In this document: positions 367 to 46,479 of the stretch, piece by piece
Layout: each line of letters opens with the position of its first letter
How positions within the stretch are numbered: position 1 is the stretch's first letter
NCBI GenBank assembly: GCA_965206845.1
Contig: OZ242221.1
Coordinates: 736,001-800,000, forward strand
From: Cenarchaeum sp.
GTDB lineage: Archaea; Thermoproteota; Nitrososphaeria; Nitrososphaerales; Nitrosopumilaceae
Direction: 5' to 3'
DNA length: 64,000 bases
Notes under the pieces: generated by a model
The model's input: the letters and a program-made list of their open reading frames with translations, nothing else
Databases searched by the model: none
What the model was told of the DNA's origin: nothing
Position numbers and translations under genes: made by a program

Positions 367-2143
367 TCTTGACCCGAACATCGCGGGGATTGACCTTGGC
401 AAGATCCTGCGCCTCCCGGGAGTGCCTGTGGAGCTTGATGTAGCCGTTCTTGCCCACTTGGTCCGAGAGGATTACCTCATCGCCTGCGAGTATGTCGGCT
501 TCCATTCCACCGTACTCCCGCCCCACCATGAGGCACAGGGAGCGCTTTGACTCGGATATGCGAAGTGGTATCTCCGACGGCACCGCTGCCTGCTCCCTCT
601 CCTGTATGTCTATGCGAACCTGGAGCTGCTTCTCCAGCTCGGTTATCTTGGAGCCGCCGCGGCCGATTATAGCAGGTATGCATCTTTTGCCCACCCGGAT
701 TCGGACGCTGTTGCCTGACAGCACCTCGATCTGGGCATCGGGGTCAAACCGCCGAAATGTCTCGGTAATCTTCTCCTCAACCAGCTTGTGCATGTCGTGG
801 CCCTGGGTAACCGGTATGACGACATTCTCCTCGCCAAAGGTGTAGATCTCGTACTCCAGTATGCCGTCCTCAAAGTCGCGAATCTCGATTACCGGCCGTG
901 CCAGATCCTGCTCCACCATTCCAGAGGGAACCTTGATCTTCAGTTCCAGCTGGTACACCTTGTCGATCTGCCCGTACTTGACAAAGACCACGGTATCCAG
1001 GACGCTGGGAATGATGCCTAGCTCTATCTTGCCCATAAAGCGCTGAATCGAGTCCAGCGGGGCGCTGGCGTGCACCACGCCGACCATGCCCACCCCAGTA
1101 AGCCGCAGATCCGAGAATATCGTAAAGTCTTCGCGCCTCCTTATCTCGTCAAATATGGTGTAGTCGGGCCGGACAAGCATCAGTATGTCTGCCGAGTTTT
1201 CAAAGGAGCCGTCCAGCCTAGTGTACTGTGTGACTGCCCGGTCCACCTGCAGATCTCGCGGCGACTCGAAGGTCTTTACTATCTTTCCGGAGGAGTGGTA
1301 AAAGTTTGCAAGGCTCGATGCCAGGGTGCTCTTGCCGGAGCCCGGTGGTCCTGATATCAGCATGCCCTCGGCCTGCACGGTCAGTCTTGTCATGAGCTTC
1401 TCAGATATGCCATAATCCTTTAGGGACATCCGGACTGTGGGATGCACGATAGTAATCTCGTACTTTTCTGAGAAGGGCATCTGGGTGATGGCTATCCGGT
1501 AGTCGCCGTGCTGCACCACTAGCGCCCCGGGCTTGGATATCTCAACGTTCATCCCGGCCCTGGAGGACTCGAGTATCTGGGTGGTAATCTCGTGCAGGTA
1601 GTCCCGTGTAAGGGCCACATCCCCTGCTGGAACGAGCTCAAAGTGTCCCGGCTTGCCCCTCTTTGCCATGGCCGGCAACCCCTCCTTGAGGTGCACGCTC
1701 ATGGTCTGGGCATCAAAGTACTGCAGGAACTCCATCTGCTCATCCCTGGGAGTGGGATGCTGGAGGCTGACGGTGACTCCCTGAACCTCCGCCACCAGGG
1801 ACTGGACGCGGTCCGATGTATACAGTATGGCACTGTTCTGCACCGCAACATCCTTGATTATGGCGTCAATGCGCCCGCGCTCTGAGAGACTGACATCGTC
1901 CGCGCTAGGCCTTGATCCTGCAAATCGAATCTGCAGGTCAAAGCCTGCAGCCATCTCCTTTATCTTCCTGATCTCCTCCAGGCCGATAAAGCCCTCCTCC
2001 TTTTTTTGTGCGGCCTGGGACTGCAGCTCGTCTATGACGGCCTCGGGAATTATAATCTCCGAGCCTTCAAAGCCGCCGGATCTTATCAGCTCGGTAATCC
2101 GTCCGTTGATAACTATGCTTGTATCTACAACTATCTTATCCAA
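353..2143 (-). CDS. PIN-domain ATPase with C-terminal KH domain (PINA/VapC-ATPase)
   Basis: N-terminal PIN 'IVVDTSIVI...PEAVIDEL', Walker A GPPGSGKST, 'FDEIRR', KH motif IIGRGG. Confidence 0.9.
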   Translation of the reverse strand: MDKIVVDTSIVINGRITELIRSGGFEGSEIIIPEAVIDELQSQAAQKKEEGFIGLEEIRKIKEMAAGFDLQIRFAGSRPSADDVSLSERGRIDAIIKDVAVQNSAILYTSDRVQSLVAEVQGVTVSLQHPTPRDEQMEFLQYFDAQTMSVHLKEGLPAMAKRGKPGHFELVPAGDVALTRDYLHEITTQILESSRAGMNVEISKPGALVVQHGDYRIAITQMPFSEKYEITIVHPTVRMSLKDYGISEKLMTRLTVQAEGMLISGPPGSGKSTLASSLANFYHSSGKIVKTFESPRDLQVDRAVTQYTRLDGSFENSADILMLVRPDYTIFDEIRRREDFTIFSDLRLTGVGMVGVVHASAPLDSIQRFMGKIELGIIPSVLDTVVFVKYGQIDKVYQLELKIKVPSGMVEQDLARPVIEIRDFEDGILEYEIYTFGEENVVIPVTQGHDMHKLVEEKITETFRRFDPDAQIEVLSGNSVRIRVGKRCIPAIIGRGGSKITELEKQLQVRIDIQEREQAAVPSEIPLRISESKRSLCLMVGREYGGMEADILAGDEVILSDQVGKNGYIKLHRHSREAQDLAKVNPRDVRVKIRAS

Positions 2144-3683: not shown

Positions 3684-4118
3684 CAAGAGTTAGTGCGTGC
3701 CAGTAGTAACCCTCCTTCTGTTTTCACGATATTCAGCTTTGCAGTCCACCTGAGCCGGTTACAGGAAACCGTTGGCTCCGTTTGACCTTGCTCCATGTGG
3801 GACAGATCTTTCACTCCATGCTTGGAAACCTCAGGCTTTGGGGCCATCACCGTACGCCAAGCCGGATCTTTTTCTGTTCTGTTGCCTGCCATCTCTGACA
3901 ACCCATCTCCAGGCCACATCTCCTGTATGGAGGGAGGAGTTTCCTCTGCCGTGGCAGCATGTCGCGCTCTGGCTCGCACCACACCTGCTATGCATCGCAC
4001 AAATTTGAACATTTCTGTGGTGTGTGAACCAAAAAACCGCCGCAGGGCAGCGTGGCAGGTCGCACAAACCGGCACGGCCTAGAAAGAGATATTATCGTTC
4101 TCTGGATCCTACACTGTA

Positions 4119-9597: not shown

Positions 9598-9674
9598 TGG
9601 CGGGATTGGCAGGATTTGAACCTACGACCCCTGGTACCCAAAACCAGAATCATACCAAGCTAGACTACAATCCC
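9598..9674 (-). tRNA. tRNA-Pro(TGG), CCA encoded
   Basis: Acceptor GGGATTG/CAATCCC, anticodon arm CTGGT-TTTGGGT-ACCAG, T-loop GTTCAAATC. Confidence 0.92.
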
Positions 9675-11944: not shown

Positions 11945-12278
11945 CTGCTGCCCGCAATTCCAAATTAAACGCTTCGATATTTTTTGCCGCGCAGCGGTTT
12001 TAGGAACCACTCCGCGATCCAAGAACCCCGGCGGCGCCGGCCACCTGTCGCATCCGGTCAGGCCCAAAGGCGCCCCACAGCGTGTACGCCGGTGCCCGGA
12101 TAAGAGAGGAGCCGGCCCGATATCCTTTGGGGGTTTAAAAAGGGAATTATATACTTCGGTAGGCATGACCACGCGCCTCCCGCGGATGGGGTTTTTGTTT
12201 GGATACCTTCACATGGCATCCGCTCCCATCCGGGAGCCAGTAACCTGCCACCCCCGGATGGCCATGACGGTTCGGACT

Positions 12279-12296
12279 GTCTGCATGGTCTGCATG
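12279..12296 (+). repeat. Two tandem 9-bp GTCTGCATG units upstream of the tnpB promoter
   Basis: Exact tandem repeat; the homologous position in copy 2 has four units. Confidence 0.8.
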
Positions 12297-12310
12297 GTAT
12301 TGTCGCGGTG

Positions 12311-12318
12311 TTTTTATG
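12311..12318 (+). promoter_or_regulatory. Putative TATA box of tnpB copy 1
   Basis: TTTTTATG about 25 nt before ATG 12343; conserved as CTTTTATG in copy 2. Confidence 0.55.
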
Positions 12319-12342
12319 CGCGCTTGGCATTTGCATGCGGTA

Positions 12343-14067
12343 ATGAGACCCATCATGGCGGCCGCGACAGCAACAGTGTTAGCGGCGACGGCAACCGCAA
12401 CGGCAACCGAGCCGGCGCCAAAAAAGTGGTCAAGGCGCCCAATGGAGGGCACCATGGTGCGCACCATAAAGGTGGACTTTGACCAGTCGGCCGAGCTGTC
12501 AGATTTGATATCCCGCCGCATGGACCAGCAGAGGTGGGCCTTCAACATGGCCGTCCGCGAGAAGCTGAACGACCCGAGAACGACAAAGTATGACCTCAAC
12601 AAGATGCTCACCAAATGGAGGAATGAGAAGAAGTGGCTCGTCCATGACAAGGACGCGCTGGCCGCAGGACGCAAGGAGGCCTGTAACAACAGGGTGCAGA
12701 GGACCGGGCTTCGCCAGGGCCTGGACGCGGTGGAGAAGTTCATGATATCCAACGGCAGGAAGCGCCGCAACAAGTCGGTGTGGAAGTACCTGGCCAAGCT
12801 CTATCGGGAAAGGGAGGCGAGGAAGGCCGCCAAGATGTCACGCAACAGTGGGGGCGGCGATGGCGGCGCCCAAAATGAGGCAAGCGGCGCCGACGCTGGC
12901 GCAAGCCTGCCGTCAAACAAGTGGAGCAGGAAAAATAACAAGTGGCGCCGCAGGGACACCCTGTTCAAGAGGAAGGGGAAAATGTGGTCCCTGTCGGTGT
13001 TCGAGAAGCCCGTATACAAGGGCGGCAACACGGTCATGCTCCCCGGTATAGGCACTGTAAGGGTGCACGGCGACGTTGAGGATCTGGACATGCGCCCCTT
13101 CCAGCTCGTGGAGACGACCAAGAAAACAACCAAGCGCACCAAAGATCACCACAAGACTTACCGCCTCCACATCCAGGTTGAAACCAAGGCACCAGAGCCG
13201 TCCGAACATGCGGTCATCAGGGGCGTGGACATGGGCATAGTCCACGGCGCCGCCACCGTCGACCTTGGCACCGGCCATCACAAGTTCCACGACCTCCCAA
13301 ATGGCTGCAGGAGAGCCAAGAACGACGACATATCGAAGATGTACTCGGAGCTCTCGCAAAAGAGGGGAGGGAGAGGCAACCGCAGGATCAGGCAGGACAC
13401 CAATGAAGGCGCCGACGGCAGGAACAACACGAGCGGCAACAACAGGAACAAAACAAGGAAGCCCAAGTCCCGCGGCTACAGGGAGCTCCAGAGGAAGATC
13501 CGGAAGAAGCGCGAGAAGATCGCCAACTGCCAGACCAACTGGGAGAGGCACGCGTCCAAGGAGATTGCGGACGGCGCCGGCACGGTGGCCATCGAGGACC
13601 TGAAAGTCAAGAACATGACCGCTAGGGCCAAGGGCAAGGGGAGCTCCGCCAAGACGGGGCTCAACCGCGAGATGGCGTACTCAAGGCCAGGGACTTTCCA
13701 GCGCCAGATCATGGGCGCCTGTGAGAACGCGGGAGTCATCGTCATAACGGTGGACCCCAAGGGCACCAGCATAACATGCCACAAGTGCGGCCACAGTGAC
13801 AAGGAATCCAGGATATCCCAAGGGAGGTTCCGCTGCGCCAATGACAAGTGTTACAATGACGTCAACGCCGACATAAACGCGGCGCATAACATTGCCTCCA
13901 AGGCGACAGCCATGGCGGCAGGGCGGCGGGGATCGTCGTCCCAAGGCGCGAGACTCCGGCGCGGGATTGCTCCCGCGCGTTCCGCAAACAGCACGCGAGA
14001 AGCAAGCGTGGGAGGGATTGCAAGAGCGCCAGAAAAAGGCAGGGGTACTGCGTACCCATGTATATAA
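12343..14067 (+). CDS. tnpB: TnpB-like RNA-guided RuvC nuclease, about 570 aa
   Basis: 'QQRWAFN' helix, RuvC-I GVDMG, RuvC-II IEDL, 'AKTGLNR', Zn finger CHKC..CANDKC, RuvC-III NADINAAHNI; stop codon lies inside the right TIR. Confidence 0.92.
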   Translation: MRPIMAAATATVLAATATATATEPAPKKWSRRPMEGTMVRTIKVDFDQSAELSDLISRRMDQQRWAFNMAVREKLNDPRTTKYDLNKMLTKWRNEKKWLVHDKDALAAGRKEACNNRVQRTGLRQGLDAVEKFMISNGRKRRNKSVWKYLAKLYREREARKAAKMSRNSGGGDGGAQNEASGADAGASLPSNKWSRKNNKWRRRDTLFKRKGKMWSLSVFEKPVYKGGNTVMLPGIGTVRVHGDVEDLDMRPFQLVETTKKTTKRTKDHHKTYRLHIQVETKAPEPSEHAVIRGVDMGIVHGAATVDLGTGHHKFHDLPNGCRRAKNDDISKMYSELSQKRGGRGNRRIRQDTNEGADGRNNTSGNNRNKTRKPKSRGYRELQRKIRKKREKIANCQTNWERHASKEIADGAGTVAIEDLKVKNMTARAKGKGSSAKTGLNREMAYSRPGTFQRQIMGACENAGVIVITVDPKGTSITCHKCGHSDKESRISQGRFRCANDKCYNDVNADINAAHNIASKATAMAAGRRGSSSQGARLRRGIAPARSANSTREASVGGIARAPEKGRGTAYPCI

Positions 14068-14072
14068 TTCCC
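13920..14072 (+). ncRNA. Putative omegaRNA scaffold overlapping the tnpB 3' end
   Basis: Conserved in three copies with compensatory stems (13959-13978 and 14043-14057); position matches known TnpB omegaRNAs; boundaries approximate. Confidence 0.65.
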
Positions 14073-14120
14073 TTTAAAAAGAACCGCTTTTATTATAGCT
14101 AATATAGAAGTTTTTTATTA

Positions 14121-14681
14121 ATGCCACAGACTAAACCAATTGTAAGCGTAGAGAATGTAGTTGCATCCGCATCAGTAGATCAGAAGATGGATCTAAACGA
14201 GATCACAAGAACATTCCTGGATGTCGAGTACCATCCAGACCAGTTTCCCGGGCTAGTCTTCAGGTTGAGCAACCCCAAGACCGCCACGCTGATCTTTACC
14301 TCTGGCAAGATGGTGTGCACCGGCTCAAAGTCCGAAGAGATGGCCAGAAAGGCGGTAAAGACCGTCGTTCAGAAGCTCCGAAAGGGCGGCGTCAGCGTAA
14401 AGAAGGATGCCGTGGTGGAGATACAGAACATCGTAGCGTCCATCAACCTAGGCGGAAAGATCCACCTAGAGCAGGCCGCAAGAACCCTGCCCCGGAGCAT
14501 GTACGAGCCGGAGCAGTTTCCTGGCCTGATTCACAGAATGCTGGATCCCAAGACGGTAATACTGCTGTTCTCCTCTGGAAAGCTGGTGTGTACCGGAGCA
14601 AAGAAGGAGCCCGATGTGTACAGATCCGTCAACAACCTGCATGCCCTCCTAGAAGAGAAGGATCTCATGATCTACGAGTAA
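14121..14681 (+). CDS. tbp: TATA-box-binding protein
   Basis: Two TBP repeats 'ENVVAS...YHPDQFPGL...LIFTSGKMVCTG' and 'QNIVAS...YEPEQFPGL...LFSSGKLVCTG'. Confidence 0.97.
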   Translation: MPQTKPIVSVENVVASASVDQKMDLNEITRTFLDVEYHPDQFPGLVFRLSNPKTATLIFTSGKMVCTGSKSEEMARKAVKTVVQKLRKGGVSVKKDAVVEIQNIVASINLGGKIHLEQAARTLPRSMYEPEQFPGLIHRMLDPKTVILLFSSGKLVCTGAKKEPDVYRSVNNLHALLEEKDLMIYE

Positions 14682-17028: not shown

Positions 17029-17103
17029 GGGCTCGTTGCATAGCATGGATAGTGCGAACGCTTGCGGAGCGTTAGGTCGAGGGTTCGAATCCCTTCGGGC
17101 CCA
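17029..17103 (+). tRNA. tRNA-Arg(GCG)
   Basis: Acceptor GGGCTCG/CGGGCCC, anticodon arm AACGC-TTGCGGA-GCGTT, T-loop GTTCGAATC. Confidence 0.93.
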
Positions 17104-19088: not shown

Positions 19089-19390
19089 GGGAATTATATA
19101 CAAAAGTACACGGTACTTCTGCCTTTTCTTGGCGTTCTTGCAATCCCTCCAACGCTTGGTTCTCGCGTTTGGTTCACGGAGCGTCCGGGAGCAATCCCGG
19201 CCTGGAATCTCGCGCCTTGGGACGACAATCCCTGCCGCCTTGACGGCAATGTTGTGCGCCGCGTTTATGTCGGCGTTGATGTCGTTCTTGCACCTGTCGT
19301 TCGTGCAGTGAAACTTTCCCTGCGACACCCGGGAGTTTTCATCCCTGTGCCCGCATTTGTGGCATGTCGTGCTGGTGCCCTTGGGGTCCC
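19089..19390 (-). mobile_element. Truncated right-end remnant of the TIR-tnpB family (copy 3)
   Basis: GGGAATTATATACAAAAGTA from 19089; encodes DPKGTSTTCHKCGH...NADINAAHNI; no left end or second TSD seen. Confidence 0.88.
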
Positions 19391-34642: not shown

Positions 34643-34800
34643 GGGAATTATATACAAAAGTAAACGGTACTTTTGTCTTTTTCTGGCGCTCCGGCGATCC
34701 CTCCCATGCTTGGCTCTTGCATGTCGTTTGCGAAACGCGCGGGAGCAATCCCGCGCTGGAATCTCGCGCCTTGGGACGACAATCCCTGCCGCCCTGCCGT
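34643..34800 (-). ncRNA. Putative omegaRNA scaffold, copy 2
   Basis: Homologous to the right ends of copies 1 and 3 with conserved and covarying stems; boundaries approximate. Confidence 0.65.
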
Positions 34801-36279
34801 CGCCATGACGGCAATGTTGTGCGCCGCGTTTACGTCGGCGTTGATGTCGTTCTTGCACCTGTCGTTCGTGCAGTGGAACTCCCCCTGCGATGTCCGGGAG
34901 TCCTTGTCCTTGTGCCCGCACCTGTGGCATGTTGTGCTGGTGCCGCCGGGATGGACGAACACGACCATCACGCCGGCGTTCGCGCATGCGCCCTCGATCC
35001 GCATTTGGAACGTCCTAGGACGCGAGTATGACATCTCCCTGTTGAGCCCCGTCTTGGCGGAGCTCCCATTGCCCTTGGCCCTAGCCGTCATGTTCTTGAC
35101 TTTCAAGTCCTCCATGGATACGGTTCCTGCGCCGTCCGCTATTCTCTTTGACGCGTGCCGCTCCCAGTTCGTCTGGCGGTTGGCGACCTTTTCACGCTTC
35201 CTTTGGATCTTCCTTTGCAGATCCCTGTAGCTGCGGGACTTGGGCCTGTCGCGCCTAGCCTCCCTGTTGATGCTGTCCTGCCCGCAGGTCTTGTCCTGTT
35301 TGCCGGACTTGCCGTTCTGCCTGATGCGCCTGTTGCCGCTACCTCCCCTCTTTCGTGAGAGCTCCGAGTGCATCTTGGATATTTTGTCGTTCTTGGCGCG
35401 CCTGCAGTCCTTTGGAATGTCATGAAATGTATGGCTGCCTGTGTCCAAGTCTACGGTTGTGGCTCCGTGGACGATGCCCATGTCGACTCCCCTGATGACC
35501 GCTGACTCTGATGGCTTTGGAGCCCTGGTTCTTGTCTGGATATGTAGGCGGTACGTCCTGTTGCAATCCTCGGTGCGCCTCGTGATCCTCTTGGTGGTCT
35601 CGACGAGCTGGAAGGATCGCATGTCAAGCCCCTCCACGTCGCCGTGGAGCCTTACCGTGCCGACACCAGGCAGCATGATTATGTTGTCGCCCTTGGGCAC
35701 GGGCTTCCCAAACACGCACAGAGCCTGCCTTTCACGCTTTCTCCTGAACAAATCATTGGCGTGGCTCCAGCGGTTCCTCTTGTTGCTCCACCTGTTCGAT
35801 GGCAGGTTTGCGCCGGAGCCGTCGTCATTTGCGCCATTGTCGGAGCCGTCCCCGTCCCGACGTATCAACTTGGCCGCCTTTTTCACCTCCATTTCCCTGT
35901 CCTTTATGGCCATGTTTTTCCACATGATTTTGTTGGAGCGCTTTGTCACGTTTGACTCCAAGAACTTCAGAACGGCCTCCCTTCCCTGGGCAAGCTCGGC
36001 CCTCTGCACCAGTACGGGGCCGTCAAGCCACCTGTTTCCACTTCTCCATTTTGTAAGCTTGTTATAAAGGTCAAATCTGGTTATTGCTGGATCCTTCAGC
36101 GTCTTCTCCACGGCCATGTTGTAGGCCCATCGCTGCTGGACAATGAGGCGCGATATGAGAACCGACAGCTCCCAGGACTGGTCAAAGTCAACCATTATGG
36201 TGCGGACCATCGTGCCGTTCCCTGCGGGATTTGGCCTCATTTCTGGCGCCGGCGCGGTTGCAGTTGCTGTTGCCACCAT
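34648..36279 (-). CDS. tnpB: TnpB-like RNA-guided RuvC nuclease (543 aa)
   Basis: GVDMG / MEDL / NADVNAAHNI catalytic motifs, CHRC..CTNDRC Zn finger; diverged paralogue of copy 1. Confidence 0.92.
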   Translation of the reverse strand: MVATATATAPAPEMRPNPAGNGTMVRTIMVDFDQSWELSVLISRLIVQQRWAYNMAVEKTLKDPAITRFDLYNKLTKWRSGNRWLDGPVLVQRAELAQGREAVLKFLESNVTKRSNKIMWKNMAIKDREMEVKKAAKLIRRDGDGSDNGANDDGSGANLPSNRWSNKRNRWSHANDLFRRKRERQALCVFGKPVPKGDNIIMLPGVGTVRLHGDVEGLDMRSFQLVETTKRITRRTEDCNRTYRLHIQTRTRAPKPSESAVIRGVDMGIVHGATTVDLDTGSHTFHDIPKDCRRAKNDKISKMHSELSRKRGGSGNRRIRQNGKSGKQDKTCGQDSINREARRDRPKSRSYRDLQRKIQRKREKVANRQTNWERHASKRIADGAGTVSMEDLKVKNMTARAKGNGSSAKTGLNREMSYSRPRTFQMRIEGACANAGVMVVFVHPGGTSTTCHRCGHKDKDSRTSQGEFHCTNDRCKNDINADVNAAHNIAVMATAGRQGLSSQGARFQRGIAPARFANDMQEPSMGGIAGAPEKDKSTVYFCI

Positions 36280-36481
36280 AGATGTGATTCGTAATTAGCA
36301 CGCAGGCATATTAGAGCACGATCTTTGGCATAATCATACGAAAGTTGCATGCTTTGGAGCACACATCTGTAAGATTATGGGCATCGAAGGCCCGATTCTT
36401 AATTGCGGATCATGTCTCATGATGATTGATTTCATTACCGCATGCAATATTCCACACCGCATAAAAGCGCCGCGACTATAC

Positions 36482-36517
36482 CATGCGGACTATACAGACC
36501 ATGCGGATCATGCAGAC
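36482..36517 (-). repeat. Four tandem 9-bp units (consensus GTCYGCATG on minus strand)
   Basis: CATGCGGAC-TATACAGAC-CATGCGGAT-CATGCAGAC on the plus strand. Confidence 0.8.
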
Positions 36518-36669
36518 AGCCCGTACCGTCACGGCAGCCAATGCCGCCGCGTTTGCCCATGCGGTCACGGCCGTCCAGAACGTTACGCAGGCATCGCGCA
36601 AAGGTAGCGCGTGGGAGAGAGCCGGAAAAGGCAGAAGACCCGTTTACTTTTGTATATAATTCCCTTGAA

Positions 36670-44887: not shown

Positions 44888-45047
44888 TTACTATTATATA
44901 GAATATGTAGGTATATAAGCATGGATAAGAGATTTCTTGAAAAAACCTATCGCATTTTACTTGAGATTAGCATGTACAAATAACATGTCCTAGAAAAATT
45001 GGGAAAAGTTTGAAGAATGTTCTAATTTATAAGGCTGGCTCCCGCCA

Positions 45048-46410
45048 AACTCTGTTTCCTAATTATTTCCAGTCACGCCTAATGGCTCCAAAATCAGGCC
45101 AGACTAGGCAAGCCAGCTGAATTTGAGCTTCACATCAGGCATTTTCAACAAGAAGCCATATTGATCAGAGAGGCGTGCCGGTAGTCAGGCTGCGAAACAT
45201 GACCACAAACACCTCCTCTCCGAATACACCCGACCCACATAATACTAAAAAATCTTTCAATCCGAAAAAATGCAGGCTCCAGTACGATGACCGCAAGTAC
45301 ATAGACCGTGGCCAGCTGTACGTGCTTCAGATAAGCATGGCGATCCTAAAACAGGGCCTGGAGGAGCTAAATCATGGAAAGGTCGGCCGCCCGTTTGGCT
45401 TTTCAAACGCATGCTTTGCGGCAGCATCCCTATTCAGAAACGCCACGGGCATAAAGTACAGGCAGCTGCAGGGCCTGGCAGAGGCAATCGTCGGCAGGGT
45501 AAATGCGCCCACATACTCGGCATTCCAGAAGAGGATGACAAAACTCAGCTGCGTTTTTGATGAGAAAGGCAGTGGCAATACGGCTGCCGCATGGTTCTCA
45601 GACGGCAACACGAGAACCGAGATAAGCCTGTTTGCCTTTGACTCCACCGGACTCAAGCCTACAAACCGCGGTGACTGGATGACAGAAAAGTGGGGCACGA
45701 GGCGCGGATTCATAAAGCTGCACGTGGGCGTGGACACCAAGACCAAGAAGATCTATGCCGTGGTCATAACTGACGACAAGTGCGGAGACTCCCCACAGTT
45801 TGAGGAGCTGGTGGAGCAGGCTTTTGCAAATGCGGAAAAATCGCCAAACGCGGGTACGTCCGCAGACACCGGAGTCGCAGCTGACGGTGCGTACGATACC
45901 AAGAATATCCGCAGCTACTGCAACGAGCGCGGAACCAACCCGCTGATTCCCGTCCGCATTGATTTTGCCGGAAATGCAAACGGGTGCATGCCACGCAAGG
46001 AGGCAGGATTCAGGCAGCTTGGCGGTTTTGACCACATAGACAAGAAGACAGAACACGGGTTTGCAGATCTTACGCGCGAGCAAAAGGGGGAGCTCCAGAA
46101 GGCATGGCGGAAAGAGTCAGGATACAACGACAGGTGGGCAGTCGAGATCGCCTTCTCCACATTCAAACGGGTCCTCGGTGAGTGCGTGAACGCACGAAAG
46201 TGGGAGAACGTCAAGACCGAGATATACGGCAAGGTGTGGCTGTACAACCATCTGATTGACACGGCAATTGACAACGGGTATGGCACGCCAAGGGTGGTGT
46301 GCCCGTCTGTAAAACCGGCCCCGAAGACAGCAAGACAGGAGGGGAGGCAGTGACATAGACAGAGTCACACAGGCGGGTGTCTGTGTGCCGCATAATTAGG
46401 AAACAGAGTT
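45048..46410 (+). mobile_element. Complete IS5-family insertion sequence (1363 bp)
   Basis: 19-bp perfect TIR AACTCTGTTTCCTAATTAT (45048-45066 / 46392-46410); 8-bp TSD TCCCGCCA (45040-45047 / 46411-46418). Confidence 0.92.
45199..46353 (+). CDS. IS5-family DDE transposase
   Basis: 'DSTGLK', 'KLHVGVD', 'ADGAYDT', 'SGY..RWAVE..FS.FKR'; start may be GTG 45175. Confidence 0.92.
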   Translation: MTTNTSSPNTPDPHNTKKSFNPKKCRLQYDDRKYIDRGQLYVLQISMAILKQGLEELNHGKVGRPFGFSNACFAAASLFRNATGIKYRQLQGLAEAIVGRVNAPTYSAFQKRMTKLSCVFDEKGSGNTAAAWFSDGNTRTEISLFAFDSTGLKPTNRGDWMTEKWGTRRGFIKLHVGVDTKTKKIYAVVITDDKCGDSPQFEELVEQAFANAEKSPNAGTSADTGVAADGAYDTKNIRSYCNERGTNPLIPVRIDFAGNANGCMPRKEAGFRQLGGFDHIDKKTEHGFADLTREQKGELQKAWRKESGYNDRWAVEIAFSTFKRVLGECVNARKWENVKTEIYGKVWLYNHLIDTAIDNGYGTPRVVCPSVKPAPKTARQEGRQ

Positions 46411-46479
46411 TCCCGCCAGATGACGGCCGGATGGCGCTTCCCAATAAGATATAATTAAGGTGACAGATCGAATCCGAAT

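Follow-up and report, generated by a model that had tools for sequence, protein, structure and literature searches.

The window analyzed here, a stretch of 64,000 nucleotides from Cenarchaeum sp. (contig OZ242221.1, positions 736,001 to 800,000), carries a 1931-bp transposon (window 12142-14072, copy 1 in the following) with perfect 13-bp inverted ends, an 8-bp target site duplication (TSD) and a tnpB-like gene as its sole gene. We consider it probable that window 13921-14072, the last ~150 nt of this element, encodes the omega (right-end) RNA scaffold of its TnpB-like nuclease. The RNA would be read on the tnpB strand, overlapping the nonconserved and probably disordered tail of the open reading frame (ORF). 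From 5' to 3' it is predicted to comprise a GGGA(U/A)-loop hairpin, a multi-branch domain with a long-range closing helix, an A-rich linker, a subterminal hairpin, the 3' arm of which would be the inner part of the terminal inverted repeat (TIR), and the 13-nt TIR itself.

Covarying RNA structure at the right end

The right ends of 16 copies were aligned and subjected to consensus folding by RNAalifold, resulting in 47 pairs, 9 of them with compensatory changes. Up to eight helices were assigned, given here with the adjoining features in window coordinates:

13866-13872 with 13879-13884 (+): H1, possible; within or beside the RuvC-III coding part, membership in the RNA uncertain
13893-13896 with 13917-13920 (+): H2, possible; within or beside the RuvC-III coding part, membership in the RNA likewise uncertain
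13921-13928 with 13934-13941 (+): H3, hairpin with the conserved loop GGGA(U/A) at 13929-13933, GGGAU in copy 1
13945-13949 with 14026-14030 (+): H4, long-range closing helix of the multi-branch domain (13945-14030), from RNAalifold
13961-13966 with 13971-13976 (+): H5, hairpin GCGGGA-ttgc-TCCCGC
13980-13983 with 14011-14014 (+): H6, stacked with H7, from RNAalifold
13992-13996 with 14006-14010 (+): H7, stacked with H6; 3 pairs with compensatory changes
between the multi-branch domain and H8 (+): A-rich linker, from RNAalifold
14039-14047 with 14053-14061 (+): H8, subterminal hairpin, adjoining and entering the TIR
14060-14072 (+): right TIR GTATATAATTCCC, presumed 3' end of the scaffold; the same 13-mer is found at the ends of bacterial relatives
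14073-14092 (+): predicted guide, i.e., right TSD (14073-14080) plus flank, as expected from TnpB biology

For this region, a preliminary description had pointed out a GGGTAC-tgc-GTACCC stem, a GCGGGA-ttgc-TCCCGC stem and a short GGGA...TCCC stem. All three are present as described, the first at 14043-14057 with variants in copies 2 and 3, and the second at 13961-13976 with CCGGGA...TCCCGG in copy 3. The notion of a structured right end was thereby borne out, while its extent had been underestimated: six helices lie within 13921-14061 and two more are possible upstream. We also found the structure to continue through the TIR to the transposon end, the TSD to be the first flank sequence past this end, and the covarying sense-strand structure to overlap the 3' end of a TnpB gene with an intact catalytic triad, all as put forward there.

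Covariation, the core of the earlier claim, exceeds both shuffle and slid-partner controls among the 16 right ends. Standard pairs occupy 97.9% of 748 cells versus 91.7% in shuffles, and double changes were counted in 45 cells versus 15.6 in shuffles, the observed value being reached by none of 500 shuffles. Sliding the 3' partners by 1-3 columns left 35-50% of the cells paired and only 1-5 double changes. For copy 1 by itself, the folding energy is -85.3 kcal/mol (z = -2.73). A covariance model built on the last 153 nt of the right ends was applied to 41 genomes (the source genome, G000, and 40 relatives), detecting 28 modules in the source genome and eight in G018, which represents another genus of the same family; the 39 other relatives gave no scaffold match in this search. 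Within the 30 best hits from these two genera, double changes occur in 20 of 37 pairs (102 cells versus 31 in shuffles, 0/500), with the alignment being fitted to the model structure and, hence, biased towards it.

On the level of single helices, the closing pair of H3 is GC in seven, CG in six and AU in three copies, and its loop is retained in G018 and in bacteria (UGGGAAU in 15/17). H4 reads GGCGC/GCGCC in the source genome, GACGG/CCGTC in G018 and CACGG/CCGTG in bacteria. One pair of the possible helix H1 switches from GC to CG in 6/16 copies by way of two synonymous Ala codons. H8 shows double changes in five of its nine pairs (30-sequence alignment). Its 3' arm belongs to an extended TIR common to the left end, whereas the 5' arm is consistently present at the right end only; since the pairing arm is right-end specific, this indicates an RNA hairpin built onto the inner TIR.

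The types of noncanonical pairs indicate on which strand the structure forms. On the tnpB strand, the 748 paired cells consist of 650 Watson-Crick, 82 G-U, 8 A-C and 8 other combinations. Because of this excess of G-U over A-C the complementary strand could not form the structure, which argues against a duplex-DNA or cruciform feature as well as against an antisense RNA. It likewise bears on the idea that the features are transposase-binding sites or DNA hairpins of an IS1595-type right end (the family affiliation is discussed below), with the covariation as a by-product of co-evolving inverted repeats. Such an origin would account for the 3' arm of H8 being part of the extended TIR, for the loop motif GGGAAU, which equals the outermost TIR bases in inverted orientation, and for the copies starting at genome positions 1188043 and 1049606, whose left ends carry a long inverted right end. 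However, besides the folding of one strand only, most left ends lack H3-H7, helices 100-150 nt inside the end exceed usual transposase footprints, and single-strand hairpins are not known to serve in DDE transposition. We regard this explanation as very unlikely.

A TnpB-like nuclease with intact catalytic residues and a nonconserved ORF tail

The protein encoded by the element matched the Cas12f1-like TNB domain PF07282 at 7.8e-15 (Pfam), with PF01385 (OrfB_IS605) scoring 24.2 bits, which is under its cut-off. Comparison with PDB chains by phmmer yielded Cas12f/TnpB at 8e-11, the alignment stopping at the RuvC-III motif (residue 478 of 534). D256, E378 and D470 together with C439, C442, C458 and C463 are invariant in 23/23 aligned archaeal and bacterial proteins; thus, both the RuvC D-E-D triad and the TNB zinc finger by which a TnpB is recognized are in place. 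All Foldseek matches of the AlphaFold model were Cas12f, TnpB or Fanzor2 (AsCas12f 8e-13, ISDra2 TnpB, 8h1j, 7.5e-12) at template modeling scores of only 0.28-0.41. As the model has a mean predicted local distance difference test value (pLDDT) of 57, it was used for family-level matches only.

The conserved TnpB core ends ~175 nt from the transposon end, while the ORF stop is located 5 nt from it. The ORF of both full copies in the window has its stop, a TAA, within the TIR, in agreement with the preliminary description, and this holds for 10/14 scored copies (15 examined). The tail in between does not behave like protein-coding sequence. Variable sites per codon position amount to 0.49/0.47/0.39 in the tail versus 0.38/0.08/0.50 in the RuvC-III core, all reading frames of the scaffold region are open on both strands, the compensatory changes within the helices alter the tail peptide, and AlphaFold predicts the tail to be disordered (pLDDT <40). 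Taken together, this points to selection on the RNA fold and not on the peptide. Plain coding sequence of a C-terminal TnpB extension, with pairings incidental to GC-rich coding, could be proposed from the frame being open to the TIR in these 10 copies and from gene callers annotating the tail as protein; given the missing codon periodicity, the altered amino acids, the predicted disorder, the open frames and the collapse of pairing in the slid-partner controls, we consider it highly improbable.

In several database relatives (P0093, P0099, P0100, P0103, P0107, P0112, and P0117) the called ORF crosses the TIR in another frame (peptide ...VYNSL...) and enters the flank. Their annotated C-termini are therefore in part translated transposon end plus host DNA.

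Element anatomy and mobilization

The following features of copy 1 and of the other copies lie within the window:

12131-12133 (+): candidate target-adjacent motif (TAM), positions -3 to -1 ahead of the left TSD, GGG in copy 1; putative role
12134-12141 (no strand): left 8-bp TSD TTTAAAAA, same as 14073-14080
12142-12154 (+): left TIR GGGAATTATATAC, from the 13-bp repeat comparison
12463-14067 (+): tnpB-like ORF, 534 aa from MVRTIK, stop TAA within the right TIR
34643-36664 (-): copy 2, 2022 bp, TSD TTGAATCA; scaffold at 34643-34795, 177.6 bits (covariance model)
19089-19389 (-): copy 3, truncated right-end fragment; scaffold at 19089-19241, 169.4 bits (covariance model)

The 13-mer occurs in five exact copies in the window; with up to 2 mismatches allowed, chance would give 0.56 matches. 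Throughout the host genome, a single 1.65-Mb contig with 57% GC, 15 full-length end pairs 1.83-2.64 kb apart were found, 12 of which enclose an open frame of 548 aa or more. Nine of these 15 copies have a perfect TSD and two others a TSD matching in 7/8 bases; short tnpB-less derivatives and solo ends are present in addition. The element is a recently active TIR/TSD transposon and not a member of IS200/IS605. The latter family, as delimited in the relevant part of a review (PMC13565253), is devoid of TIR and TSD, has subterminal hairpins of single-stranded DNA and inserts 3' of a fixed tetra- or pentanucleotide. The 13-bp TIRs and 8-bp TSDs set the element apart from this definition, including its IS1341 group.

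No copy of the element encodes a transposase, and the other insertion sequence (IS) families of the genome have different ends. The genome contains one IS1595-family DDE gene (PF12762, 1.3e-34), located at genome 27.5-28.5 kb, with an open 309-aa ORF. A candidate cognate transposase is hence available in the same genome, its action on these ends being a prediction. Its product has 56% identity to the transposase of a bacterial IS1595 element that bears the exact 13-mer at its end. IS1595-family genes were found in 4/5 bacterial genomes bearing relatives of the element, and the 13-mer (up to 3 mismatches) is located 40-165 nt upstream of the transposase ORF in 5/8 bacterial IS1595 loci; second ends and TSDs of IS1595 transposase copies were not found at the loci examined. 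TSDs of 8 bp, as typical of the IS1595 family, occur in the archaeon and in bacteria. Mobilization in trans by an IS1595-type enzyme is supported by this TSD length, the bacterial pairing of 13-mer and transposase, and the 56% identity. From these sequence relations we infer a nonautonomous IS1595-type cut-and-paste transposon that would depend for its movement on an IS1595-family DDE transposase acting in trans. The end consensus presumably matches the ISNwi1 group of ISfinder. The stretches between 13-mers at the bacterial loci L172-L174 (3.0 kb, 2.4 kb), considered as a unit of tnpB plus transposase, hold ordinary genes. This IS1595-type TIR/TSD shell, the nonautonomous nature of the element and the distribution of the family over archaea and bacteria had gone unrecognized in the preliminary description.

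Several copies and derivatives show further scaffold modules. The full copies at genome 1188043-1189924 and 1049606-1051551 contain the long right-end scaffold in inverted form also at their left ends (134.4 and 84.6 bits), so that modules face outward at both ends; the 1188043 copy has a C after the right TSD, which equals a G at -1 for its second module as well. The left end of copy 2 (36531-36664, +) holds a weak inverted partial scaffold of 30.6 bits, and the TIR homology of this copy reaches ~40 nt at 90% complementarity. A 369-bp tnpB-less element at genome 1178387-1178755 is built from a pair of scaffold modules in inverted orientation, scoring 138.6 and 50.2 bits and separated by ~80 nt, and a 706-bp derivative at genome 938659-939364 has one weak scaffold module. 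It is possible that such tnpB-less derivatives are RNA-only hitchhikers on TnpB.

Relatives in archaea and bacteria

Extension of the analysis to other genomes revealed the same architecture, ends and 8-bp duplications in another archaeal genus (G018) and in bacterial relatives of ~1.29 kb. A protein search of 201 family genomes (the source genome and 200 others) returned only the source genome at E <= 1e-30, and a search of the genome collection returned distant bacterial relatives only, being 26-45% identical. These originate from metagenome-assembled genomes labeled Dadabacteria, Thermodesulfobacteriota, Spirochaetia, Arenicellales, and Dehalococcoidia. Both 13-mer ends (up to 3 mismatches) surround a ~410-aa TnpB in 24/80 bacterial loci; most of these 24 elements are ~1.29 kb long, with a perfect TSD in seven and 7/8 matching bases in three more. 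The ORFs extend to within 13-17 nt of the element end. Between archaeal and bacterial TnpBs, identity is ~31% overall, compared with 35-44% where the RuvC region is matched.

Folded independently by RNAalifold, 17 of the 24 bacterial right ends, picked for length and non-redundancy, reproduced the plan found in the archaeon: a UGGGAAU-loop hairpin, a long-range CACGG/CCGUG helix, a terminal hairpin and the TIR. What characterizes TnpB/OMEGA (short for obligate mobile element-guided activity) systems, a conserved structured RNA on the gene strand reaching from the 3' end of the ORF to the right transposon end, is consequently present. The structure might instead be a sense-strand cis element of the tnpB mRNA, e.g., a 3' stabilizer, a terminator or a translation or processing signal, and no guide scaffold at all. 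Its position inside the 3' end of the tnpB transcript with the ORF running through would suit this, as would the absence of an Rfam omega-type family match and of a separate small RNA or flank-derived 3' extension among the transcript contigs described below. We nevertheless judge it unlikely: a multi-helix plan kept from archaea to bacteria and always ending exactly at the transposon end, the retention of the module in tnpB-less derivatives (two in the 369-bp element), which a cis-acting mRNA signal does not explain, and the equally unexplained asymmetric target sites speak in favor of a guide scaffold.

A pattern scan of metagenome contigs of the Joint Genome Institute (JGI) for the right-end signature gave no match. 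Among 34 further bacterial regions with the 13-mer only one usable element (L197) was encountered, most being solo 13-mers. Solo 13-mers with near-identical flanks recur across the bacterial genomes G217-G221, often just upstream of genes (loci L185/L217, L189/L195/L216, L188/L194, L191/L196/L218, and L203/L213). Old solo ends that sit at orthologous sites could explain them, as could a motif resembling a promoter. The 13-mer looks like an archaeal transcription factor B recognition element combined with a TATA box, and the TIR may therefore have a second role as promoter.

Transcript contigs

Assembled contigs from four sponge metatranscriptome runs match part of the stretch. Positions 13959-14041 are covered in run X2 by two of them, 109 nt (word depth 940) and 35 nt (depth 800) in length; the 109-nt contig runs on into the hairpin of another copy and stops within the TIR. 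Elsewhere in this run, ORF pieces reach depths of 16-99, and the contig of the neighboring TATA-binding protein (TBP) gene 10.4. Contig depth is a poor measure of abundance and DNA may be present in such libraries, so these values are a weak hint to an abundant RNA from the scaffold. Runs X1, X3, and X4 held no contig matching the scaffold at 95% likeness.

Asymmetry of insertion sites

Insertion sites were oriented by tnpB and the unoccupied sites were rebuilt. Archaeal sites with good TSDs have a G at -1 in 11/11 and at -3 in 7/11 cases, and the first TSD base is T in 9/11, with the mirror base past the right TSD being C in only 3/11. The bacterial sites show G at -1 in 10/13, A as first TSD base in 12/13 and the mirror C in 1/13; the additional element L197 conforms with G at -1 and A as first TSD base, having T at the mirror position. 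Pooled, G at -1 is present in 21/24 sites versus the mirror C in 4/24 (Fisher p = 1.4e-6). A transposase that is symmetric and works on identical ends would not be expected to sense the orientation of the gene.

Assuming that the guide is copied from the right flank and begins with the TSD, an unoccupied site must have its TAM at -1 and further upstream. The predicted TAM is roughly GKG for the archaeal and roughly AWDG for the bacterial form. At the right junction of an occupied site the same target follows the TIR CCC, and at the left junction no more than 8 nt match the guide. The -1 G fits a TAM, with the terminal CCC of the transposon putatively shielding the occupied site. This offers a candidate answer to the self-cleavage problem raised in the preliminary description, in which the occupied junction also matches a TSD-initiated guide: empty sites have G at -1, the occupied junction the C of the TIR. 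The asymmetry suggests either retention of TAM-bearing insertions or an asymmetric transpososome. The latter, an intrinsic asymmetric target preference of the transposase complex independent of any TAM, is conceivable because the subterminal sequences inward of the 13-bp TIR are not the same at the two ends, and the first TSD base is biased too (T in archaea, A in bacteria). On the other hand, the 13-bp ends are identical, the bias lies on the side required for a TnpB TAM if the guide is the right flank, and it recurs in two lineages whose TnpBs are ~31% identical; accordingly, we hold a pure transposase preference to be less likely than not.

Copy 1 sits 49 nt upstream of an ORF (14121-14681) which, by its translation, appears to be the TBP gene, beside an AT-rich TATA-like stretch. 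The same-genus genome G001 retains the proximal part of the TBP upstream sequence without the element. The exact empty site upstream of this gene was not found in four related genomes, the upstream flank being diverged.

Proposed mechanism and its weighing

In analogy to characterized TnpB systems, the RNA would be cut out of the tnpB message or transcribed along with it, and would reach ~16-20 nt into the flank by continued transcription or processing, so that the guide would begin with the 8-bp TSD. An IS1595-family DDE transposase would move the element in trans. The nuclease-RNA complex would then cut unoccupied sites (a G-terminated TAM followed by the TSD and the right flank), and repair from the occupied chromosome copy would restore the element. 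The occupied junction would escape cutting, since the same target is preceded there by the TIR CCC.

Tentatively, we take a further step and propose a cross-domain family in which TnpB and omega RNA are built into IS1595-type ends, resulting in a dual-coded transposon end: the inner TIR would be the last RNA hairpin, the terminal CCC an anti-TAM and the TSD the first 8 nt of the guide. The -1 G might then be the footprint of TnpB-dependent retention, i.e., homing into empty sites, on a trans-moved DDE transposon, and the two-module tnpB-less derivatives might be RNA-only parasites of the nuclease. This combined proposal may well prove wrong in one part or another and is put forward with less assurance than the scaffold itself.

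Several observations weigh against the scaffold and the mechanism. The shuffle controls overstate independence, because the copies are related and recombining. No Rfam family reached its gathering score in the region (best E-value 0.17, on the opposite strand), leaving homology to a characterized omega RNA unsupported. The conserved loop GGGA(U/A) could hypothetically pair with a 3' UUCCC as a pseudoknot, for which the list of all variants contains no compensatory change. The contigs reveal neither strand, start nor end of the RNA, nor whether it crosses the TIR. The candidate TAM is mainly one G and weaker than typical TnpB TAMs, which comprise 4-5 nt; the bias of the first TSD base could instead reflect a transposase preference; and one of the 13 bacterial sites (L180) is without tnpB, making its orientation arbitrary. 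The resident IS1595 gene has a 9/13 TIR match on its upstream side only and no recognizable second end. Finally, cut-and-paste DDE elements gain little from homing according to the section of the above review on such elements (PMC13565253).

Further features of the window and genome

Genome 27.1-27.5 kb (L120 1065-1315) contains several inverted-repeat motifs of ~26 nt starting GGCTCTG and adjoining the IS1595 transposase gene, which may be small remnants of another IS1595 subgroup resembling miniature inverted-repeat transposable elements. A different IS of 1.37 kb with its own TIRs and a 408-aa transposase ORF occupies window 45046-46411 (genome 781046-782411) and has ~6 genome copies. Other IS families measure 1.21-1.24 kb and 1.06 kb, the latter with an integrase-type transposase by eye, and the genome is repeat-rich in general (198 repeated segments). 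A 13-mer-like match at window 2045-2057 was dismissed, being situated in ordinary coding sequence without scaffold. The window also encodes the archaeal RNase P RNA (3695-3977, -, 189.6 bits) and tRNA genes at 9601-9674 (-) and 17029-17103 (+).

Comparison with known systems

The benefit of an RNA-guided TnpB to prokaryotic cut-and-paste DDE transposons finds a compact testable case in this family. It combines a covarying scaffold, ~15 recent insertions with clean 8-bp TSDs in one genome, relatives in several bacterial phyla, a specific prediction on TAM and occupied-site protection, and a candidate trans-acting transposase. Moreover, it indicates how a guide RNA gene can occupy the very nucleotides that serve as transposase-recognized ends. 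With nucleases of ~410 aa and scaffolds of ~110 nt, the small bacterial versions may be of interest for genome editing.

In comparison with the TnpB-omegaRNA of ISDra2/IS605 (8h1j, 8exa), the element has in common a TnpB/Cas12f-type nuclease with intact RuvC triad and zinc finger and a structured RNA over the 3' end of the gene to the right transposon end, with a guide expected from the flank. It differs by its 13-bp TIRs and 8-bp TSDs in place of asymmetric hairpin ends without TSD, by the lack of a Y1 TnpA, and by a guide that would start with the duplicated target. Furthermore, its candidate TAM is found 8 bp from the left end instead of adjoining it, and its protein is ~130 aa longer owing to low-complexity inserts.

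The survey of Altae-Tran et al. 2023 (PMC10691335) distinguishes six DDE-associated TnpB branches (DDE-1 to DDE-6) having inverted terminal repeats and a TnpB 3' end at most 250 bp from the transposon end, as well as solo TnpBs within the same ends that are presumed to be moved in trans. The element studied here shares the inverted terminal repeats and the TnpB 3' end within 250 bp. IS630 (DDE-6) is the only DDE family named in the main text, and its passages on these branches mention neither IS1595 nor an omega RNA structure, covariation or TAM logic for such elements. In its passages on the subject, the 2026 review (PMC13565253) gives ISL2, IS630, and IS1031 as DDE families with TnpB and calls the association rare and its benefit unclear. 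A full-text literature search for IS1595 and TnpB, judged by titles and abstract openings, yielded no paper on their association. While DDE-associated TnpBs are already known, the RNA architecture, the dual coding of the TIR, the cross-domain conservation and the TAM-like asymmetry were thus not found in the literature searched to this depth.

With the IS1595 family, including its 'passenger' forms, the element shares the 8-bp TSD and short TIRs, and its 13-mer is present upstream of bacterial PF12762 transposase genes. TIRs starting GG..ATTAT are what we take to be IS1595/ISNwi1-like ends according to the consensus in ISfinder. Unlike members of this family, the element carries tnpB only and no transposase, and each of its ends corresponds to the one that lies on the 5' side of the transposase.

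A TnpB-family nuclease carried by a cut-and-paste transposon is also known from Fanzor1 in eukaryotic TIR/TSD (DDE) transposons. In the portions of the two sources concerned with it, Fanzor1 is described with an RNA at the 3' end, structured and conserved, close to the right inverted repeat (PMC10530073) and with a 5' TSD forming part of the TAM (PMC13565253). The TSD of the present element, being 8 bp long and variable, cannot itself be the TAM. In contrast to Fanzor1, the hosts are prokaryotic, and both the phmmer search of the PDB and the Foldseek comparison place the protein nearer to Cas12f/TnpB than to Fanzor.

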